From an uncultured Yersinia sp. (GTDB lineage Bacteria > Pseudomonadota > Gammaproteobacteria > Enterobacterales > Enterobacteriaceae), in the NCBI GenBank assembly GCA_964496225.1, contig CAZBYB010000001.1, positions 5,416 to 35,461 on the forward strand: a stretch of DNA of 30,046 bases, in the 5' to 3' direction. This document shows positions 11,796-26,030 of this stretch, piece by piece. Within the stretch, counting starts at the first letter, position 1, and every line of letters begins with the position of its first letter. The notes under the pieces are model-generated. The model was given only the letters and a program-made list of their open reading frames with translations. It searched no databases and was not told the DNA's origin. A program made the translations under genes and the position numbers.

Positions 11796-13157
11796 TCAGT
11801 CACACTGGACTTTAATGGCAAGGCCACCGCGGGATGTTTCACGGTATTTGGCATTCATATCCTTACCCGTTTCGTACATGGTTTCAATAACCTTATCAAG
11901 AGACACACGAGGTTCACTGGCACGCCTGAGCGCCATACGGGCTGAGTTTATTGCCTTTACCGATGCAATGGCATTACGTTCAATACACGGTACCTGTACC
12001 TGACCCGCTACAGGATCACAGGTCAGACCCAAGTTATGCTCCATACCAATCTCAGCTGCAATACATACTTGCGCCGGACTTGCACTTAACAATTCAGCCA
12101 ATCCAGCAGCGGCCATAGAGCAGGCAACCCCCACTTCTCCCTGACAACCCACTTCTGCCCCTGAAATAGACGCATTCATTTTATACAAAATACCAATGGC
12201 CCCTGAAGTCAGAAAATAGCGGATATAAATCTCAGGTGTGACAGGTTCAATAAAGTGATCATAGTAGGCCAGGACCGCCGGAATAATGCCACATGCACCG
12301 TTAGTCGGTGCTGTAACCACTCGTCCTCCTGCTGCATTTTCTTCATTGACTGCCAAAGCAAACATATTAACCCAATCAATCGCATTCATTGGATCCATAG
12401 ATAATTTATCAGAAGAAACCAGTAATCGACGTAATGCAGACGCCCTGCGGGGCACCCTTAACGGGCCAGGCAATATACCTTCGGTATTTGAACCACGATC
12501 AATACAAGCACGCATAGTCTGCCAGATATCCGAAAAATAAATATCTATCTCTTTTTTACTGTGTAGGGCCAACTCATTTTGCAATACCAGACCAGAGACA
12601 GACATACCCGTTTGATCACAGTGAGCAAGAATATCTCTGGCGGAATGAAAAGGATAAGGAACAGTCACCGTATGTACTGTTTGCTTACCAAAATGTTCGG
12701 CATCAACAATAAAACCGCCACCAATAGAATAGTAAGTTTTACTGTAAACCTGTGTTTCATTAGAAAATGCATGGATTTTCATGCCATTTTCATGTAGCGG
12801 TAAATTATCTTTACAAAAAACGATACCTCCTTCACGGGGAAAATTGACTTCCTGTTGTTTATTGAGCATCAGCCGCTCCCGTTGCTCAACTTCGCGAATA
12901 AAACCAGGAATATGATTGATATCAACGGTATCAGGTTGATACCCTGCCAACCCCATAATAATGGCAATATCCGTATGATGACCCTTTCCAGTCAATGATA
13001 GAGAACCGTAAACTTCAACAGCGACACGCGTGATGGAAGAGAGCAGCGCCTGATTGACCAGATCATCCACAAACTGTTTCCCGGCTTTCATTGGCCCCAC
13101 CGTATGAGAGCTGGATGGACCGATACCAATCTTAAACATGTCGAAAACACTAATCAC
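11796..13157 (-). CDS. sdaA: L-serine ammonia-lyase, Fe-S dependent
   Basis: GIGPSSSHTVGP, SLSLTGKGH, VVTAPTNG, GCQGEVG, GLTCDPV..PCIERN; GTG start with AGGAG RBS; synteny with nudL/pabB favours sdaA over sdaB. Confidence 0.93.
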   Translation of the reverse strand: MISVFDMFKIGIGPSSSHTVGPMKAGKQFVDDLVNQALLSSITRVAVEVYGSLSLTGKGHHTDIAIIMGLAGYQPDTVDINHIPGFIREVEQRERLMLNKQQEVNFPREGGIVFCKDNLPLHENGMKIHAFSNETQVYSKTYYSIGGGFIVDAEHFGKQTVHTVTVPYPFHSARDILAHCDQTGMSVSGLVLQNELALHSKKEIDIYFSDIWQTMRACIDRGSNTEGILPGPLRVPRRASALRRLLVSSDKLSMDPMNAIDWVNMFALAVNEENAAGGRVVTAPTNGACGIIPAVLAYYDHFIEPVTPEIYIRYFLTSGAIGILYKMNASISGAEVGCQGEVGVACSMAAAGLAELLSASPAQVCIAAEIGMEHNLGLTCDPVAGQVQVPCIERNAIASVKAINSARMALRRASEPRVSLDKVIETMYETGKDMNAKYRETSRGGLAIKVQCD

Positions 13158-13422
13158 AATAACTCCTTAAAATAACTTGATGAAACTGAATACTGTGATC
13201 CCTGTCAGCACACCCAGCCAAAACAGCATTACCTTGATTATCAACATTATTCTTATAATATTAAGAGATAAGGATTACAGGTATTTTACAATTTCACCCT
13301 CATAGTTTAGCTGTTAAAAAAAGAAATCGATAGCATTGAATGCCAATGAAAATAAGAAAATATAATACGACATGATTAACAACGTTATTTTTGAGAGAAG
13401 CTGAAATTTTTAAATTTGGATG

Positions 13423-13476
13423 GTGGTGATATCCAGCTACCTGCTGCACAAAAAAGAAATCAGGCTGGATCACCAC
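13423..13476. terminator. Long imperfect inverted repeat just downstream of the metalloprotease gene
   Basis: GTGGTGAT(AT)CCAG..CCTG / CAGGCTGGATCACCAC; begins 15 bp after the stop on the minus strand; no canonical U-tract. Confidence 0.4.
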
Positions 13477-13491
13477 AGCCCGTATGTCCTG

Positions 13492-16188
13492 TTATGTCAC
13501 AGTACTGAATGTTATACAGGGAGTTATGCCACTGCAGGTTCCTGTAACCGGCGATGGAAAATACACATCCGCAGATGAAGAATCCTGAAAACCAGCAATT
13601 GCATCGACAAGAAGTCCCTCAGGCCTCTGCTGTTTCTGCAGGGTAGCAGAAGATGCATCCGGTGAGTCATCGTCCGATTCAGCGATCTCTGGCGGCGCAT
13701 TAATAGCCTGTCGCCTATCGTGAGATTCAGTATTTAACGGCAGATGATCATTTGATGGTACATCGATATCGGTTATTGTAATCCACTTGTCACCCTGCAG
13801 AATATGCCCTACCCATTTCAACCCGGCACTATTGTCAGACTGCAACTGATAGCTACTTCCGTCAGCATACAGAATTTCTACCTGAAGATCAGAAAACGCC
13901 AGTGATTCCATTCCTATTATCAGCACTGTTTTTCCCGTATCAGCATCGTCTTTAAAATGAATCCTCCATGTTCTGTCATTCAGTGCATCTATTGCTATGC
14001 CACGATGGAAACCTGTTGTTCTGTCAGAAGCAGAGAAAAAGCGCAGCACAGATTCCCCCTGTACAAAACCCGTAACAGCATAATCTTCATTCAGCCTGTC
14101 TTGGGCATTGAGTGTGATCTGTGCAGCCCAGGAACCAGGAGCCAGCCAAACTTTTTGCGCTTCACGAAAAAGTTGCTGTGATGTGCCCAATTCAGGATTC
14201 CTGCCATGTATTAACTGGATTGTCAGTTTATCTGTAGATTGATATTCAAAAACTTCGGTACCCTGTGACATCACTGAAAGCCGCATATCGTTAATCAACT
14301 CGTTCCGATGATCCAACCCAAGCGCATGGGCAATTTCATGCCGGATGATCCCCAGTATTGATTGCGTATCCTTACCGAAGGTTGATTCATCGCCAAACCT
14401 GATTCTCCTGTAAGGCAGTTCTCCATTCATAAAAGCAAGCCTGCCTGGCGTAGTATCTCGATCATCATTACGATAGGCAGCGAAATCAAAATCAATGTCC
14501 TCACCCTCTGTGGCTTTGCGAAAACGAATTGCCGCAAAACTCTCGATTTCATCAAGAACGGATCTTATCAGGCTCTTCTGCTCATCTGTCATCGCAATAA
14601 GCTCGAGTGTATGCCTAAAATCATCCCCTTTTTCAGAACGCCCAAATCCATCAACACGGGGGGTATCAACAAAAGCATAAGTATAGACTCTGACCAGACC
14701 ATCCGACTGTGCATAACCTGGCCAGGCATTGGAGATGCCAAATACAAAAGGGCCATTAAAATCATTCACCGCTATCGAGTTCATTTGTCCATAGATAATA
14801 CGGGGAAAAGTGACAAATTGATCGATACTTTCACGTACGTGCATCACCTGGAAGGCAGGAACGGCATCTTTGATCAGTGCAAGCAAGGTATCCTCTTGCG
14901 TTCCACTATTCCCGGATCTCTGCCTGTTTTCCTGGATAATACCCTGCCTGACTAAGGGTTCAACGATTTCCCATGTGATTTTTTTGGGGTTATCCACCCA
15001 TTTTTCCGCCTGGTTCATGGCCTCGTCGGCAATACGCCACCGCATTTCTGGCGTAAAATATTCTGCTTCTTTAGCAAAAATCGCTTCCACCCCGTCGGAG
15101 ATTTCCTGCCGTTTCAACCGGGACTCATACTCAAAATCGCTCGGCATACCCATCTCTGTTGCCAAGCGAAAAAGGCGGCTTCTGATATCCCTGACATCTA
15201 TGTTGCGAATAAGACACTGAGCAATATATGCAGGTTCTTCAGAAGGCGAAAGAGAAAGCTGGCCTTCAAGCAGCCCCTTCAGTTCTGGAATATTAAATAG
15301 GCTTTCTTGATGCCGGTCAGAAGACGCCATGCCATCAGCGTGATTGGCTGGTTCTTCATCACTTAATTCAGGCATACCCAAGAATCGATTCAGGGCACGT
15401 AACACACCAAGTAACCAGGATTTATCATAACTGGATGACCCACTTTGTATTGATGTGGAGCCACTGGCTGGCAGCAACAGAACCGGTATTTTCGATTTCT
15501 GGCTGGATGTTAATAATGTTGTCGACGCTTGTGGTGCAAAAACCGCGCGATCAATGAGGAAATGCGTTTTTTCCGACGGACTGACGTAATTGAAGCCCAA
15601 TCTCAACATCAGTAACACGATGATATCGCTTTCACCGTAACTAAACCAACCGTCGGAAGAATTGTAAGTAAAGCTGTAATTGATACTCTCTGGTAAATTT
15701 TCTCTGGAATAACTGTTTTGACTACTTTGGTTTTCCTGTACAAAAGTACGAATCACTGCCGCTATGGGTGCATTTTCTTTTTCGCTGTTCCAGTACTGCC
15801 CGATACGCTCACGATACTGGCGTTTGCTGTCACCTACCAACGTACCAATAATACGCCCCATTAACTGACTGAGAGGAGGCCACCCTTCTTTCCAATTTTG
15901 TTTCTCAATATCCTGCGAAACAGTATCAATAACGCTCTTAATCTCCTGTGGTTTTTCAGGGTATACTTCCAGCAGTGCTGACTGCAGCCGATCAAAAAAT
16001 GCCTGATGAATACCGCTGTTAAAATAGATTAAACCCTTATTTTCATTGACCCAGTCTATAAAATCCAATATCGCCTTGCCGTTCTTTTCGTTTACATCTG
16101 CACTGCTCATCGGATTGAGCTCAACCGTAGGCAGGTTATTGAGAAAAGGGAGATCTGCTGTTGCCGTCATGAATATCATTACTCTCAC
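13492..16188 (-). CDS. 898-aa putative secreted metzincin (M10-like) metalloprotease with unknown N-terminal region
   Basis: HEIAHALGLDH (HExxHxxGxxH, 14308-14340), Met-turn SVMS (14266-14277), upstream YTYAF..EQKSLIRSVL..IRF pattern as in M10 catalytic domains; C-terminal IIGMESLAFSD and LLVDAIAGF resemble RTX-associated motifs. True start may be ATG 16179 or 16170. Confidence 0.85.
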   Translation of the reverse strand: MRVMIFMTATADLPFLNNLPTVELNPMSSADVNEKNGKAILDFIDWVNENKGLIYFNSGIHQAFFDRLQSALLEVYPEKPQEIKSVIDTVSQDIEKQNWKEGWPPLSQLMGRIIGTLVGDSKRQYRERIGQYWNSEKENAPIAAVIRTFVQENQSSQNSYSRENLPESINYSFTYNSSDGWFSYGESDIIVLLMLRLGFNYVSPSEKTHFLIDRAVFAPQASTTLLTSSQKSKIPVLLLPASGSTSIQSGSSSYDKSWLLGVLRALNRFLGMPELSDEEPANHADGMASSDRHQESLFNIPELKGLLEGQLSLSPSEEPAYIAQCLIRNIDVRDIRSRLFRLATEMGMPSDFEYESRLKRQEISDGVEAIFAKEAEYFTPEMRWRIADEAMNQAEKWVDNPKKITWEIVEPLVRQGIIQENRQRSGNSGTQEDTLLALIKDAVPAFQVMHVRESIDQFVTFPRIIYGQMNSIAVNDFNGPFVFGISNAWPGYAQSDGLVRVYTYAFVDTPRVDGFGRSEKGDDFRHTLELIAMTDEQKSLIRSVLDEIESFAAIRFRKATEGEDIDFDFAAYRNDDRDTTPGRLAFMNGELPYRRIRFGDESTFGKDTQSILGIIRHEIAHALGLDHRNELINDMRLSVMSQGTEVFEYQSTDKLTIQLIHGRNPELGTSQQLFREAQKVWLAPGSWAAQITLNAQDRLNEDYAVTGFVQGESVLRFFSASDRTTGFHRGIAIDALNDRTWRIHFKDDADTGKTVLIIGMESLAFSDLQVEILYADGSSYQLQSDNSAGLKWVGHILQGDKWITITDIDVPSNDHLPLNTESHDRRQAINAPPEIAESDDDSPDASSATLQKQQRPEGLLVDAIAGFQDSSSADVYFPSPVTGTCSGITPCITFSTVT

Positions 16189-16380
16189 GTTAATTATAAG
16201 AAGGAAGAAAAATTCATGCTTTGTAAGATATACGCCATTTTTTATATGATCTTTTAAAAAACGCTCATTTTAATAACTGGGATGTCACTTTTTTCTCTTT
16301 CTTCACGGTTGCCTGCTTGAAGGCCTGTAAACAACTTTGTTAACAGTGCCATACATAAAGTAAGCAACAATAATTATAAC

Positions 16381-16968
16381 TCAGTATAATGAATGACTTA
16401 CCTGATAAGCTAGCTGACGGATGATCGCTGCTGTCAATCCCCAGATCAATTTCCCTCCATACCATGAGAAATAAACGTGACGATATTTGCCTGAATAATA
16501 GCCCTCCAGCGGATAATAATGGGAAAACCGGAGTGCTTCCTGTAACGGTATTTCAAACAAATCATTAACTTCCGTCGGGCTAGCGTAAAAAAAAGTTTCT
16601 GGAGGGATCAGACCAACAACAGCAGTGACTTGATAACCATTGATGCTGTCTAGGGGAGCGAGCTGGCCAAGCACAGTTACCGATAAAGGAGACAGGTTAA
16701 TTTCTTCCTGTGCTTCCCGCAATGCAGTGGCTATCAATGAATCATCTTCCGGATCGGCTACTCCTCCGGGAAAAGCGATGTGCCCTGGATATCTGCGCAA
16801 CGTATCGGCGCGACGCGTGAGTAATAACGTCGGCACCGGCCGACAGATAACAGGGATTAATACTGCGGCCTTGCGCAGGTTACTACAATGCTGTACAAAC
16901 TGTGGCATTTGCAGTTGGAAGCGGCTCACAAATTCAGGCAATGATGAATGCTCAGGCAGTTGACTCAC
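16381..16968 (-). CDS. nudL: Nudix hydrolase NudL (YeaB, CoA pyrophosphatase type)
   Basis: AAVLIP, LLLTRR, IAFPGG..ALREAQEE Nudix box, IWGLTAAI; overlaps the pabB stop. Confidence 0.93.
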   Translation of the reverse strand: MSQLPEHSSLPEFVSRFQLQMPQFVQHCSNLRKAAVLIPVICRPVPTLLLTRRADTLRRYPGHIAFPGGVADPEDDSLIATALREAQEEINLSPLSVTVLGQLAPLDSINGYQVTAVVGLIPPETFFYASPTEVNDLFEIPLQEALRFSHYYPLEGYYSGKYRHVYFSWYGGKLIWGLTAAIIRQLAYQVSHSLY

Positions 16969-18338
16969 AAAAATGCCAGTTCTCCCAATTGCGGCAGGAT
17001 ACGACTTATTTTATCAAAAGTTTCCTGATATTCTGCCTGCTCCTGGCTGTCTGCGACGATCCCTCCCCCTGCCCAACAGTAAATCCTGCCCTGCTCTGTC
17101 AATAAAGTACGAATACTGATGTTAGTATCCATAGTACCGCAACAACTGATATAGCCGATATTTCCGCAATATGCATTACGCCGCTGAGGTTCAAGTTGTT
17201 CAATAATCTGCATCGCGCGTATCTTTGGTGCCCCCGTAATGGAGCCACCAGGAAAACAGGCGCGCAGTAAATCAGCAGCATGGTATTCATCCGCAAGAGT
17301 GGCAGTCACAGTACTGACCAGGTGATAAACTGCAGGAAATTGCTCAACAACAAAGAGTTCAGGCACCTGAACCGTACCTGGCTTAGCCACCCGGCCAATA
17401 TCATTTCGCATCAGATCGACAATCATCAGATTTTCTGAACGATCCTTGGATGAATTTTTCAGTTTAATAACCTGATTTTGATCTTCCCTAGTGTCCTGTT
17501 TTCTGGGTAGCGTCCCCTTGATGGGTCTGGTCTGGATATGCTGATTTTGCAACCAGAGAAATCGCTCGGGAGAAACACTCAGCACGGTGTTCTGTGGCAG
17601 GCGTAAAAAAGCAGAAAAGGGTGCCTGATTACTTTGACTCAGACGTAAAAATGCCTGCCACTCATCTCCTTGGTATTTTGCGCTAAACCGTTGTGCCAGA
17701 TTCACCTGGTAGCAGTCGCCCATGCGTAACCAGTGCTGTATCTGACAAAATTTTTCTCCATATTGCTGACGTGACATATTGCTGTGCCAGGGGCCGGTTA
17801 AGTGAAAAGGTATCGTTGCTGCATTGGAATGTCGCTGCAGCCATTCCAGACGCTGTTGTGGATCCCCATAACACATCAGGGTCAGTTTTTTCAGGTGGTG
17901 ATCGGCAATCAGCGCCCAATCATATAATCCAACGGCCATATCGGGAAGTTCGATATCTTTTTCAGCCAGTAACGGTAGCTGCTCTATACGACGTGCAAGA
18001 TCATAACCGAACAATCCCAGCGCACCGCCCTGAAAAGGGATATCAGGATGCATCATGGCAGTAAAATTCAATGCATCTAGCTGCCGTTGCAGGAGTTGAA
18101 AGGGATCATCCTGCACACGTTGCGATTTCCCAGCATACGCTATTTCAGTGGACTGGCCACGAGTCGTTAAGGTTAGCAGTGGATCAGCAACCAGGATATC
18201 AAACCGATTGTGTGCATGACAGGCAAAACCTGAATGTAACAGCATAGCCCAAGGTTGGACTGAAATAGGTGCAAAATACCGTAAAACGGCATCCGCCTGC
18301 CAGGGTAATGATTTAAAGTCAGGAGATTTGACATTCAT
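16965..18338 (-). CDS. pabB: Aminodeoxychorismate synthase component I
   Basis: SPERFL, TRPIKGT, ENLMIVDLMRND, FPGGSITGAPK, WAGGGIVADS. Confidence 0.96.
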   Translation of the reverse strand: MNVKSPDFKSLPWQADAVLRYFAPISVQPWAMLLHSGFACHAHNRFDILVADPLLTLTTRGQSTEIAYAGKSQRVQDDPFQLLQRQLDALNFTAMMHPDIPFQGGALGLFGYDLARRIEQLPLLAEKDIELPDMAVGLYDWALIADHHLKKLTLMCYGDPQQRLEWLQRHSNAATIPFHLTGPWHSNMSRQQYGEKFCQIQHWLRMGDCYQVNLAQRFSAKYQGDEWQAFLRLSQSNQAPFSAFLRLPQNTVLSVSPERFLWLQNQHIQTRPIKGTLPRKQDTREDQNQVIKLKNSSKDRSENLMIVDLMRNDIGRVAKPGTVQVPELFVVEQFPAVYHLVSTVTATLADEYHAADLLRACFPGGSITGAPKIRAMQIIEQLEPQRRNAYCGNIGYISCCGTMDTNISIRTLLTEQGRIYCWAGGGIVADSQEQAEYQETFDKISRILPQLGELAFL

Positions 18339-18527
18339 TAGAAGATCTCATTAGGCCAGTAAAATGCGTTTTTTATTTGTGGCATCCCTTATTATCGGGA
18401 TTTAGAGTAAACTGATAATCAAAAAGTATTCAAGATTATATTGATCTAAACCAAATTTTATGACCGTATTGTCTTGTCCATCTACCCCATAAAATGCGTC
18501 AGATTGTGTTCTGGCAATAGAGGTGAT

Positions 18528-18923
18528 ATGAAATCCCGGATAATAGAAATATATGCATTGCTTGTCTGTTTTTGTGCGGTAACTTGTTTAATGATTGCTA
18601 CAGGTACTTTTGGATATGCAATTTTTAAAATTGCAGCACCGGAATTAACCATGGAAACGTATGAATATAACCAGCATCAAAACAATGCCGCTTTTTGGAA
18701 AGATAAGTTGTCATGTGGATCACGAGGTGGGGATACACAGAATAGTGAAATAAAACCCGATGAGAATGAATTAACCCGACAGCGGTTAAGTTCGCTGGAT
18801 TTCGCCATACAGGCAGAAAAACGTGAGGGTATACAATCCGTTGTGCAATCGCTGATTTTTATATTAAGTTCCTGCATTGTACTTGCCGTACATGCAATGA
18901 TGGCAATAAAGAGTCGTCACTAA
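18528..18923 (+). CDS. Hypothetical two-TM membrane protein (131 aa)
   Basis: AGGTGA RBS before ATG 18528; N- and C-terminal hydrophobic helices around a polar loop; no family recognised with confidence. Confidence 0.75.
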   Translation: MKSRIIEIYALLVCFCAVTCLMIATGTFGYAIFKIAAPELTMETYEYNQHQNNAAFWKDKLSCGSRGGDTQNSEIKPDENELTRQRLSSLDFAIQAEKREGIQSVVQSLIFILSSCIVLAVHAMMAIKSRH

Positions 18924-18966
18924 ACATGTGGATGAAATGCAGCGCTTTACAGGTTGGCAGTTAATT

Positions 18967-24553: not shown

Positions 24554-25078
24554 ATGACAGCTGTAGGCATTTTCTTTGGTTCTGACACTGGCAATACTGA
24601 AAATATTGCCAAAACGATTCAAATACAATTGGGCAAAGGGACTGCTGAAGTTCATGATATTGCCAAAAGCAGTAAAGAAACGCTGGAGCGCTTTGACATA
24701 TTACTGTTCGGTATCCCAACTTGGTATTACGGTGAAGCTCAGTGCGACTGGGATGATTTCTTTCCTACCCTGTCACAGATAAATTTCAATGGTAAACTTG
24801 TCGCGCTTTTTGGTTGTGGTGATCAGGAGGACTACGCGGAGTATTTCTGTGATGCCATGGGCACAGTGCGTGATATCATCGAACCACAGGGGGCCACCAT
24901 TGTTGGCCAATGGCCTGTTACAGGTTACCACTTTGAAGCCTCCCGCGGTCTGGCAGATAATGGTCACTTTATTGGTTTGGCCATTGATGAAGATCGACAG
25001 CCTGAACTAACAGATGAACGTGTCAGAACTTGGGTTAGACAGATTGTCCAGGAACTCCAGTTGTCGAATGTTATCTAA
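24554..25078 (+). CDS. fldA: Flavodoxin FldA
   Basis: FFGSDTGNTE FMN loop, GIPTWYYGE, GCGDQEDYAEYFCDA. Confidence 0.97.
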   Translation: MTAVGIFFGSDTGNTENIAKTIQIQLGKGTAEVHDIAKSSKETLERFDILLFGIPTWYYGEAQCDWDDFFPTLSQINFNGKLVALFGCGDQEDYAEYFCDAMGTVRDIIEPQGATIVGQWPVTGYHFEASRGLADNGHFIGLAIDEDRQPELTDERVRTWVRQIVQELQLSNVI

Positions 25079-25146
25079 TCGCAAGATGCAATAACCCTTA
25101 TATAACCTGGCAATAAGGCACGGTGATAAATCCTCTGAAGTATGTA

Positions 25147-25212
25147 ATGATATTGCTGTTAATGACCGCCGGTTTTTATTCACAGGACTCAAACCCGCAT
25201 GAGCGACAATAA
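25147..25212 (+). CDS. Possible fur leader peptide (uof-like, 21 aa)
   Basis: MILLLMTAGFYSQDSNPHERQ* overlaps the fur start in the same relative frame as E. coli uof (CCG CAT G..); sequence similarity otherwise low. Confidence 0.3.
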   Translation: MILLLMTAGFYSQDSNPHERQ

Positions 25213-25645
25213 TAAAGCATTAAAAAACGCTGGCCTGAAAGTCACATTACCGCGTCTCAAGATCCTTGAAGTACTACAAGACCCGGCATGTCATCACATC
25301 AGTGCCGAAGATATCTACAAACGGCTCATCGATATTGGTGAAGAAATTGGTTTGGCAACGGTTTACCGCGTATTGAATCAGTTTGATGATGCCGGTATTG
25401 TCACCCGCCACAATTTTGAAGGCGGCAAGTCTGTCTTTGAGCTTACGCAACAACATCACCATGATCATCTGATTTGCCTGGATTGTGGCAAAGTTATTGA
25501 ATTCAGTGATGAGCCCATTGAATTACGCCAGCGTGACATCGCCAGACAGCATGGCATAAAATTAACCAACCACAGCCTGTATCTTTACGGACATTGCGAA
25601 AAAGGGAACTGTCGTAAGGATGAATCACTACACGATATCCGATAA
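25199..25645 (+). CDS. fur: Ferric uptake regulator Fur
   Basis: GLKVTLPRLKIL, IGLATVYRVL, HHHDHLICLDCG. Confidence 0.98.
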   Translation: MSDNNKALKNAGLKVTLPRLKILEVLQDPACHHISAEDIYKRLIDIGEEIGLATVYRVLNQFDDAGIVTRHNFEGGKSVFELTQQHHHDHLICLDCGKVIEFSDEPIELRQRDIARQHGIKLTNHSLYLYGHCEKGNCRKDESLHDIR

Positions 25646-26030
25646 CACCTGTCTTAAAATGTAAGGCAACACCACGTTACTGACAAAGTCAAAAAGGAAT
25701 GCCCCGGATTTTTGGATAAAAATAGATCTGCAGGCGTTTCAATACTGATATTACTCAGAACCTGAGCCTGTACTACAACCAGTATATTTCCGAAGCAATC
25801 CGTATGTATTGTGGTACTCAGTTGTTAGCTATTGAAGCGTATTGTCTATGACCCGCAAAACGACAGCCATATCCATGAACCACCGCACCCTATAAAAATA
25901 ACCTAATAGATACCATCGCGCGTAGTGCAATGGCATCAACAGGGTAATGCAATCTTTTGCAGGCTTTTTTACAAAGCCTCACTTAAATCCAACCGCTCCT
26001 GAACAGACCCTAAATCAGGCTGACATAGAT

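Follow-up and report, generated by a model that had tools for sequence, protein, structure and literature searches.

An M10-like metzincin gene inserted between nudL and sdaA in a genome-reduced, Yersinia-like aquatic bacterium

The DNA analysed here (hereafter, the window) is a 30,046-nt stretch of contig CAZBYB010000001.1 from an uncultured Yersinia sp. (GCA_964496225.1), in which a large gene separates nudL from sdaA. The gene is intact, and its product is a predicted zinc endopeptidase of several domains, of which the catalytic one is of M10 type and has all parts of the zinc site. Sequence comparison places the protein among the M10-like metzincins but in neither of the two named subfamilies, the serralysins and the matrixins, although its protease chemistry is of an ordinary, known kind. 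The best explanation as a whole, to which we assign a probability of about 0.55, is that it is an exported protease serving host interaction or acting in the environment, and a member of a genus-restricted family, this copy of which was probably relocated by an insertion sequence (IS).

The catalytic domain and the layout of the protein

The original prediction, made from the window alone, described an intact open reading frame (ORF) of 898 aa and left its strand unstated. A single open frame of that length is present on the minus strand. In alignment, an ATG at 16170 coincides with the paralogues' start codons; the true coding sequence is therefore probably 13492-16170, giving 892 aa. The database copy of the protein also has 892 aa. 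Numbering below follows the longer frame. The predicted zinc-binding motif, H617-E-I-A-H621-A-L-G-L-D-H627, and the Met-turn methionine, M640, were found by script at exactly the claimed positions, as was R628. The metzincin-clan motif HExxHxxGxxH is complete, with H617, the general-base E618, H621, G624 and H627, and M640 and the three zinc-binding histidines are invariant across an alignment of eight M10 domains. R628 follows the third histidine, Q642 stands where SxMSY has its tyrosine, and the His-to-Met spacing is 13, longer than that of matrixins.

The Pfam profile PF00413 (Peptidase_M10) matched aa 534-662 with 30.0 bits against a curated cut-off of 24. The same profile scored 30.9 bits on one paralogue (P0004) and did not match the orthologue (P0003). 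Foldseek searches against the PDB retrieved serralysins at the top (PrtC, alkaline protease and serralysin, E 4e-7 to 2e-5), followed by catalytic domains of matrix metalloproteinases (MMPs) with template-modelling (TM) scores of 0.6-0.67 over about 180 residues. VIA, a scan independent of Foldseek, gave Z scores of 8.7 for alkaline protease and 8.0 for MMP-2, and then returned snapalysin, the EcxA toxin and astacin; a search of AlphaFold DB clusters agreed with a serralysin/MMP-type fold. By sequence alone, only marginal stromelysin matches were retrieved from the PDB (E 0.13-0.9), and a word-indexed search with aa 490-812 found nothing.

The protein resembles the serralysins (M10B: Serratia serralysin, Pseudomonas AprA and Dickeya PrtC), which supply its best Foldseek and VIA matches, in its metzincin M10 fold, its S-V-M-S Met-turn context and the presence of a beta domain C-terminal to the catalytic domain. 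Like them it is acidic and has no Sec signal, and it may be exported through a candidate C-terminal type I signal. Unlike them, it has no repeats-in-toxin (RTX) GGxGxD repeats and so no calcium beta-roll as its C-terminal domain; neither GGxGxD nor GxGxD occurs anywhere in the protein, and HemolysinCabind did not match it. It also differs from them by an arginine instead of proline after the third histidine, a glutamine in place of the zinc-ligand tyrosine of SxMSY and an additional orphan N-terminal region of 490 aa. The NCBIfam serralysin profile NF035945 reached 12.9 bits against a cut-off of 500, and a true serralysin of a related genome (L050, with HP...TVMSY) gave no phmmer match to the protein.

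With the matrixins (M10A, the MMP catalytic domains), the protein shares the Peptidase_M10 match, the weak stromelysin matches and the TM scores of the Foldseek search. However, it lacks the PRCGxPD cysteine-switch propeptide and a signal peptide, has Arg 628 instead of serine after the third histidine, differs in its spacing of 13 and is flanked by unrelated domains, with no hemopexin. Because it departs in these marks from serralysins and matrixins alike, the protein is placed, on its sequence, as an M10-like metzincin outside both subfamilies. This agrees with the original prediction of an unassigned M10-like protease, and no clear orthology to a characterised protease family was found. The same prediction had treated the arginine after the third histidine as a subfamily marker, and this did not hold. 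At this position the active paralogues have R, R, I and Y, and the genome's second M10 protein has S; the residue varies among paralogues, and arginine is therefore no signature of the family.

Closest outside the genus are two uncharacterised M10 proteins of other host-associated Gammaproteobacteria, P0006 (GCA_964030615.1) and P0007 (GCA_054403835.1), which share 35-36% identity with the protein over the catalytic domain only. Both proteins, and the second M10 protein of the studied genome (446 aa, contig C71), are free of RTX repeats and carry the C-terminal motif described below 31-35 residues from the end. All three differ in lacking the 490-aa N-terminal region and the beta-sandwich, and their M10 domain is N-terminal or duplicated. 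P0006, unlike the protein studied here, has a Mucin_bdg module. It is encoded in an island alongside genes for proteins with Peptidase_C80 and TcdA_TcdB toxin-family domains, and the neighbours of P0007 include two-partner-secretion genes (TPS/ShlB). The C71 gene (L004, 479-1819, minus strand) has the motif HEIGHALGLGHS and matches the Pfam M10 profile exactly at the cut-off, 24 bits; its product carries LISAMSAM 31 residues from the end.

The N-terminal region was found only in the full-length paralogues of the genus, and searches of Pfam, NCBIfam and PADLOC, a PDB profile search and an ESM Atlas feature search returned no matches to it. AlphaFold2 models it with low confidence. Its best-conserved block is aa 100-330, with 70% column identity. 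The stretch LLGVLRALNRFLGMPE...DGMASS was considered as a decayed second M10 domain (HExxH...Met-turn) and rejected, as hhalign gave a probability of 0.14% and an E-value of 0.41 against the M10 profile. Downstream of the catalytic domain lies a predicted beta-sandwich that catalytically dead paralogues have also retained and that is the foremost candidate for binding the target. The protein ends in an acidic tail (Table 1).

Insertion between nudL and sdaA

In E. coli K-12, pabB, nudL and sdaA are contiguous, and the nudL-sdaA spacer measures 183 bp. Within the GTDB family, both genes are present in 24 genomes, and in each of them the spacer, as computed from match coordinates, measures 141-615 bp. 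It is 340 bp in the sister species, G001 (a 2.8-Mb metagenome-assembled genome labelled 'uncultured Yersinia sp.' and the only other species of the genus), compared with 3230 bp in the studied genome. Both junctions are spanned by error-free contigs (12747-13912 and 16122-16507) of a public freshwater run, which may itself be the source sample of the genome. The insertion into the pabB-nudL-sdaA block is thus real, as had been proposed, and the site is empty in G001 and in every family genome checked, rather than occupied throughout the relatives.

The 192 bp between the start of the metzincin gene and the stop of nudL contain a repeat of about 95 nt. Other copies lie at C83:3456-3550, C15:26049-26134, C8:12233-12293, C20:22319-22367 and C78:7289-7350. 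In a fuller copy, the repeat makes up the terminal codons of a transposase of DDE_Tnp_1 type (IS5 family), which Pfam matched at E 4.7e-6, narrowly under the cut-off, and the copy in the window reads as the final 24 transposase codons and a stop. The IS5-family remnant at the nudL junction makes it probable that an IS mediated the move into the spacer. On C15, C78 and C20, the copy is no more than about 1.1 kb from a contig end, and copies of the repeat probably explain part of the fragmentation of the genome into 134 contigs.

In G001 the orthologue occupies a different site: it is part of an accessory islet between glnS and fur, where its neighbours are a DUF1275 gene and a GDSL-lipase gene. 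Just upstream of the metzincin gene, a stretch of about 60 bp resembles the DNA upstream of that orthologue and appears to have travelled with the gene. The fur-fldA pair is present in the window (24554-25645), and the GC content of the metzincin gene is similar to that of its neighbours. The simplest reading is that the gene was relocated within the lineage by an IS rather than recently acquired from a foreign source. The gene moved into the nudL-sdaA spacer, apparently together with some 60 bp from directly upstream of it, and an IS5-family end stayed behind at the junction. The earlier statement that the gene was kept intact in a genome that shed many neighbours is borne out in that neither accessory gene flanking the G001 orthologue was found in the studied genome with a DNA query.

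Features of the locus are collected in Table 1. Beyond sdaA lie htpX and prc, and beyond pabB a major facilitator superfamily (MFS) transporter gene, pgm, seqA, ybfF, fldA and fur. A sigma-70 scan for a promoter of the metzincin gene performed no better than on shuffled sequence, and Rfam returned no family matches in 13000-16500. Relative to E. coli and the sister species, synteny breaks at 18339-18966, where pabB is joined to the MFS-pgm-seqA-ybfF-fldA-fur block, and at 25646-26030, where fur is joined to yejG-rsuA-like-yejM. A 149-aa ORF at 18474-18923 belongs to no family, and its DNA is 74% identical in G001. An AT-rich orphan ORF of 274 aa (4632-5456, minus strand), for which the original prediction had offered a possible deamidase, had no Pfam or PADLOC match.

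Table 1. Coordinates of the metzincin gene, its predicted parts and its surroundings in the window
Feature	Position	Strand	Remarks
Terminator-like hairpin, then T-run	13461-13482	minus	10 nt past the metzincin stop
Metzincin gene	13492-16188	minus	898 aa from GTG 16188; stop codon 13492-13494
Acidic Ser/Thr/Pro/Asp-rich tail, aa 811-898	13495-13758	minus	pI 4.1; not confidently modelled
LVDAIAGF, candidate HlyA-type type I signal helix	13588-13611	minus	ends 32 residues from the C-terminus
Predicted C-terminal beta-sandwich, about aa 679-805	13774-14154	minus	fairly confident in the aa 490-812 model; no RTX repeats
M10-type metzincin catalytic domain	14194-14703	minus	about aa 496-665
Met-turn methionine M640 in SVMSQ	14269-14271	minus	invariant in eight aligned M10 domains
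Zinc-binding motif, H617 to H627	14308-14340	minus	residue positions checked by script
N-terminal region, aa 1-495	14704-16188	minus	mostly helical by prediction; unmatched in family, structure and Atlas searches
Upstream stretch	16212-16271	minus	81% identical to upstream of G001 orthologue (DNA comparison)
Decayed IS5-family transposase 3' end and element terminus	16268-16362	plus	last 24 codons readable, 16269-16343
sdaA (L-serine ammonia-lyase), one insertion flank	11796-13157	minus	equivalog-level NCBIfam match
nudL (CoA pyrophosphatase), other insertion flank	16381-16968	minus	equivalog-level NCBIfam match
pabB	16965-18338	minus	equivalog-level NCBIfam match

A genus-restricted, fast-evolving family

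With HMMER, an exhaustive search through 1.84 billion cluster representatives yielded five matches: the G001 orthologue, one dead paralogue, the two non-RTX M10 proteins of other genomes and one fragment. A word-indexed database of 5.8 billion entries returned the identical close relatives. Among 60 other Enterobacterales genomes, the sister species was the only one matched, and a profile of the M10 domain and beta-sandwich matched none of 399 other Gammaproteobacteria. M10 domains of any kind were present in 7 of 151 genomes of the order. The full architecture, with N-terminal region, M10 domain, beta-sandwich and acidic tail, was found only in this genus.

G001 contains six family members at scattered sites: two full-length copies (58% and 56% identity), two tandem copies of the C-terminal half and two more distant ones. 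In the tandem pair, the zinc motif has decayed to HDLLH...R and YSLLY...R while the beta-sandwich is conserved, and both proteins keep the C-terminal motif; by these substitutions, they are catalytically dead derivatives. The pair is encoded at L025 7977-9317 and 9917-11389 (the L008 and L007 genes) and measures 446 and 490 aa. A shared neighbour gene of the family was also considered, but the two 317-aa ORFs beside G001 paralogues are unrelated and were not found in the studied genome.

Compared with either full-length G001 copy (Nei-Gojobori), the metzincin gene has a ratio of non-synonymous to synonymous substitutions (dN/dS) of 0.36 at dS 0.84-0.91, a value that would also fit partly relaxed constraint. 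The ratio is 0.07-0.09 for sdaA, nudL, pabB, htpX and the MFS gene. By this estimate, the gene is under purifying selection, even along its length, and belongs to a fast-evolving, multi-copy family. The original suggestion that it is probably under selection is thus supported, but the core genes around it are four to five times more strongly constrained. In the population of an aquaculture metagenome, three differences were found, all non-synonymous and too few for a selection test.

These values raise the question of a decaying leftover, that is, an open but non-functional gene on its way to becoming a pseudogene in a shrinking genome. Such a gene would account for a dN/dS so far above that of its neighbours, for the three non-synonymous differences and for the loss of most family paralogues from the studied genome. 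Nevertheless, the 2.7-kb frame is open and all catalytic residues are intact, dN/dS is well below 1 at a dS of about 0.9, and both a conserved upstream region and a terminator accompany the gene. The same sequence recurs in runs of several studies, and three single-nucleotide differences are too few to argue from. We consider decay scarcely probable.

Export route and possible role

The protein has an isoelectric point (pI) of 4.8 and only three cysteines. No signal peptide or transmembrane segment was detected in it; its maximum 19-residue hydropathy is 1.45, away from the N-terminus. Near the C-terminus, LVDAIAGF is a candidate HlyA-type signal for a type I secretion system (T1SS). It follows the pattern hydrophobic-hydrophobic-x-A/E-hydrophobic-small-x-F/M/L, and its distance from the C-terminus is similar in a series of proteins: 32 residues in this protein (P0001) and in the G001 orthologue, 31 in both dead paralogues, in the C71 M10 protein and in P0006, 35 in P0007, 27 in the RTX toxin of the genome and 37 in an orphan protein of 753 aa encoded on contig C9. 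In E. coli HlyA, an amphipathic helix at 975-987 of 1024 residues is essential for type I secretion (PMC8870123). Encoded in the studied genome are TolC, HlyD proteins and two ABC transporters of the HlyB type that contain C39-like domains; one set adjoins the RTX toxin gene. The position of the HlyA-like motif and the presence of HlyB, HlyD and TolC favour type I export with an uncleaved C-terminal signal as the most likely route for the protein.

The RTX pore-forming-toxin gene lies on contig C13 (L048, 6600-10504, plus strand), with hlyB and hlyD adjoining it at 2253-6054 on the minus strand. It reads as two overlapping ORFs, the first with the RTX N-terminal domain and the second with nine HemolysinCabind stretches; the split falls on masked (N) bases, so its intactness cannot be judged. 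The orphan C9 ORF (L047, 6091-8352, plus strand) matched no Pfam family and has LVEAMSSM as its motif; its product may be a further T1SS-type substrate. A type VI secretion route was dropped, as no type VI sheath gene was found.

Besides the ambiguity of the dN/dS value, several observations weigh against the proposed export and against the structural picture on which the role rests. Classical HlyB-type substrates have RTX repeats, whereas this protein has none, and no T1SS genes are linked to its gene. No helix is predicted at LVDAIAGF in the AlphaFold2 model, and the C10 paralogue of G001 has no such tail at all. Over the whole ORF set, the strict motif occurred in five tails against 4.9 expected by chance; it is the fixed position of the motif in candidate secreted proteins, and not its frequency, that is suggestive. 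The models themselves are weak. The mean predicted local distance difference test score (pLDDT) is 47.6 for the full-length AlphaFold2 model and 64 for the model of aa 490-812, in which the M10 core reaches 74-91; it is 21-30 in the Met-turn region, so that its geometry cannot be judged from the model, and below 30 in the tail. In addition, two intact type III secretins scored above the family cut-off, offering an alternative export route.

These secretins are the starting point for a different account, in which the protein is a type III effector injected into eukaryotic host cells, with a signal in its first 20-30 residues and an N-terminal region that would bind a chaperone or direct the protein inside the host cell. 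Like its paralogues, the gene stands alone among core genes, with other orphan ORFs next to it, and we regard such a scattered layout as typical of effector repertoires. The missing Sec signal, the conserved, Thr/Ser/Asn/Pro-rich N-terminus predicted to be unstructured and the fast evolution of a family with dead copies would also fit. However, no small chaperone-like ORF adjoins the gene, the N-terminus contains the acidic residues D6 and E23, and the position-conserved C-terminal motif, common to the RTX toxin of the genome and to unrelated M10 proteins, points to a T1SS. On balance, type III injection seems unlikely.

The lack of a signal peptide and of a proven secretion signal, along with an N-terminal half of no known function, could also be taken to indicate a protease that is not exported at all, whether a cytoplasmic or self-processing enzyme or a regulatory pseudo-protease scaffold. 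An unregulated cytoplasmic M10 endopeptidase would be unusual, though, and the acidic pI, the few cysteines and the disordered tail with its HlyA-like motif fit export better. Among the other Enterobacterales searched, only the sister species has the family, which is therefore not a housekeeping one. There is, in our estimation, only a slight chance that the protein has no extracellular role.

In the favoured account, the HlyB/HlyD/TolC system would recognise LVDAIAGF as an uncleaved C-terminal signal, and the exported protein would act outside the bacterium on host or environmental proteins. The M10 domain would cleave the target, the non-RTX beta-sandwich would bind it, and the orphan N-terminal 490 aa could serve as a latency or targeting module. 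What the target would be depends largely on how the organism lives. Near-identical copies of the metzincin were retrieved from aquaculture, freshwater and wastewater metagenomes of several studies; the organism is therefore aquatic and no insect endosymbiont. Its genome (1.88 Mb in 134 contigs, 98.6% complete) contains IS copies, two type III secretion systems and RTX toxins, a combination with small size that suggests a host-restricted lifestyle. Two contigs of a freshwater metatranscriptome, 100% identical to the window, lie inside the metzincin gene (14280-14467 and 15987-16141) and are the only pieces of a 5-kb stretch recovered at 100%. They are a weak hint that the gene is expressed, and DNA carry-over is a possible source of them.

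Targeting of a host would be one use of such a protease. The more specific role first put forward, degradation of immune peptides or barriers, was conjecture: the freshwater, aquaculture and wastewater metagenomes from which the genome derives point to no host. The same provenance would suit a T1SS-exported protease directed at competing microbes or at nutrient acquisition, with no host as its target. Serralysins, the nearest structural relatives, are broad-specificity secreted proteases with which free-living bacteria scavenge extracellular protein, and the parts of a T1SS are present. Yet a 1.88-Mb, IS-rich genome with two type III systems and RTX toxins fits host restriction, the retention of the beta-sandwich by dead paralogues is more in keeping with target binding than with bulk digestion, and no immunity-like gene is adjacent. 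A purely antimicrobial or nutritional role thus appears very unlikely.

A bolder extension of the favoured account would make the family a new class of modular exported toxin. In this class, a calcium-independent beta-sandwich would replace the RTX beta-roll of a serralysin-like protease, a genus-specific 490-aa module would be added, and export would be of the HlyB type without RTX. The block at aa 100-330 would constitute a new domain for latency, for translocation or for a second catalytic activity, and the dead paralogues would be decoys or binding-only effectors. We regard this combination as quite unlikely.

The protein adds to the M10 metzincins a divergent member with a previously unseen domain layout, half of which is an orphan with no detectable relatives beyond one genus of uncultured, genome-reduced, Yersinia-like aquatic bacteria. 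If HlyB-type secretion is borne out, the protein would count as a rare substrate without RTX repeats whose HlyA-like motif keeps its position, and would help to define the T1SS signal. The locus also provides a clean example of what is probably IS-mediated relocation, in which one accessory gene survived as genome size fell from about 2.8 to 1.9 Mb.

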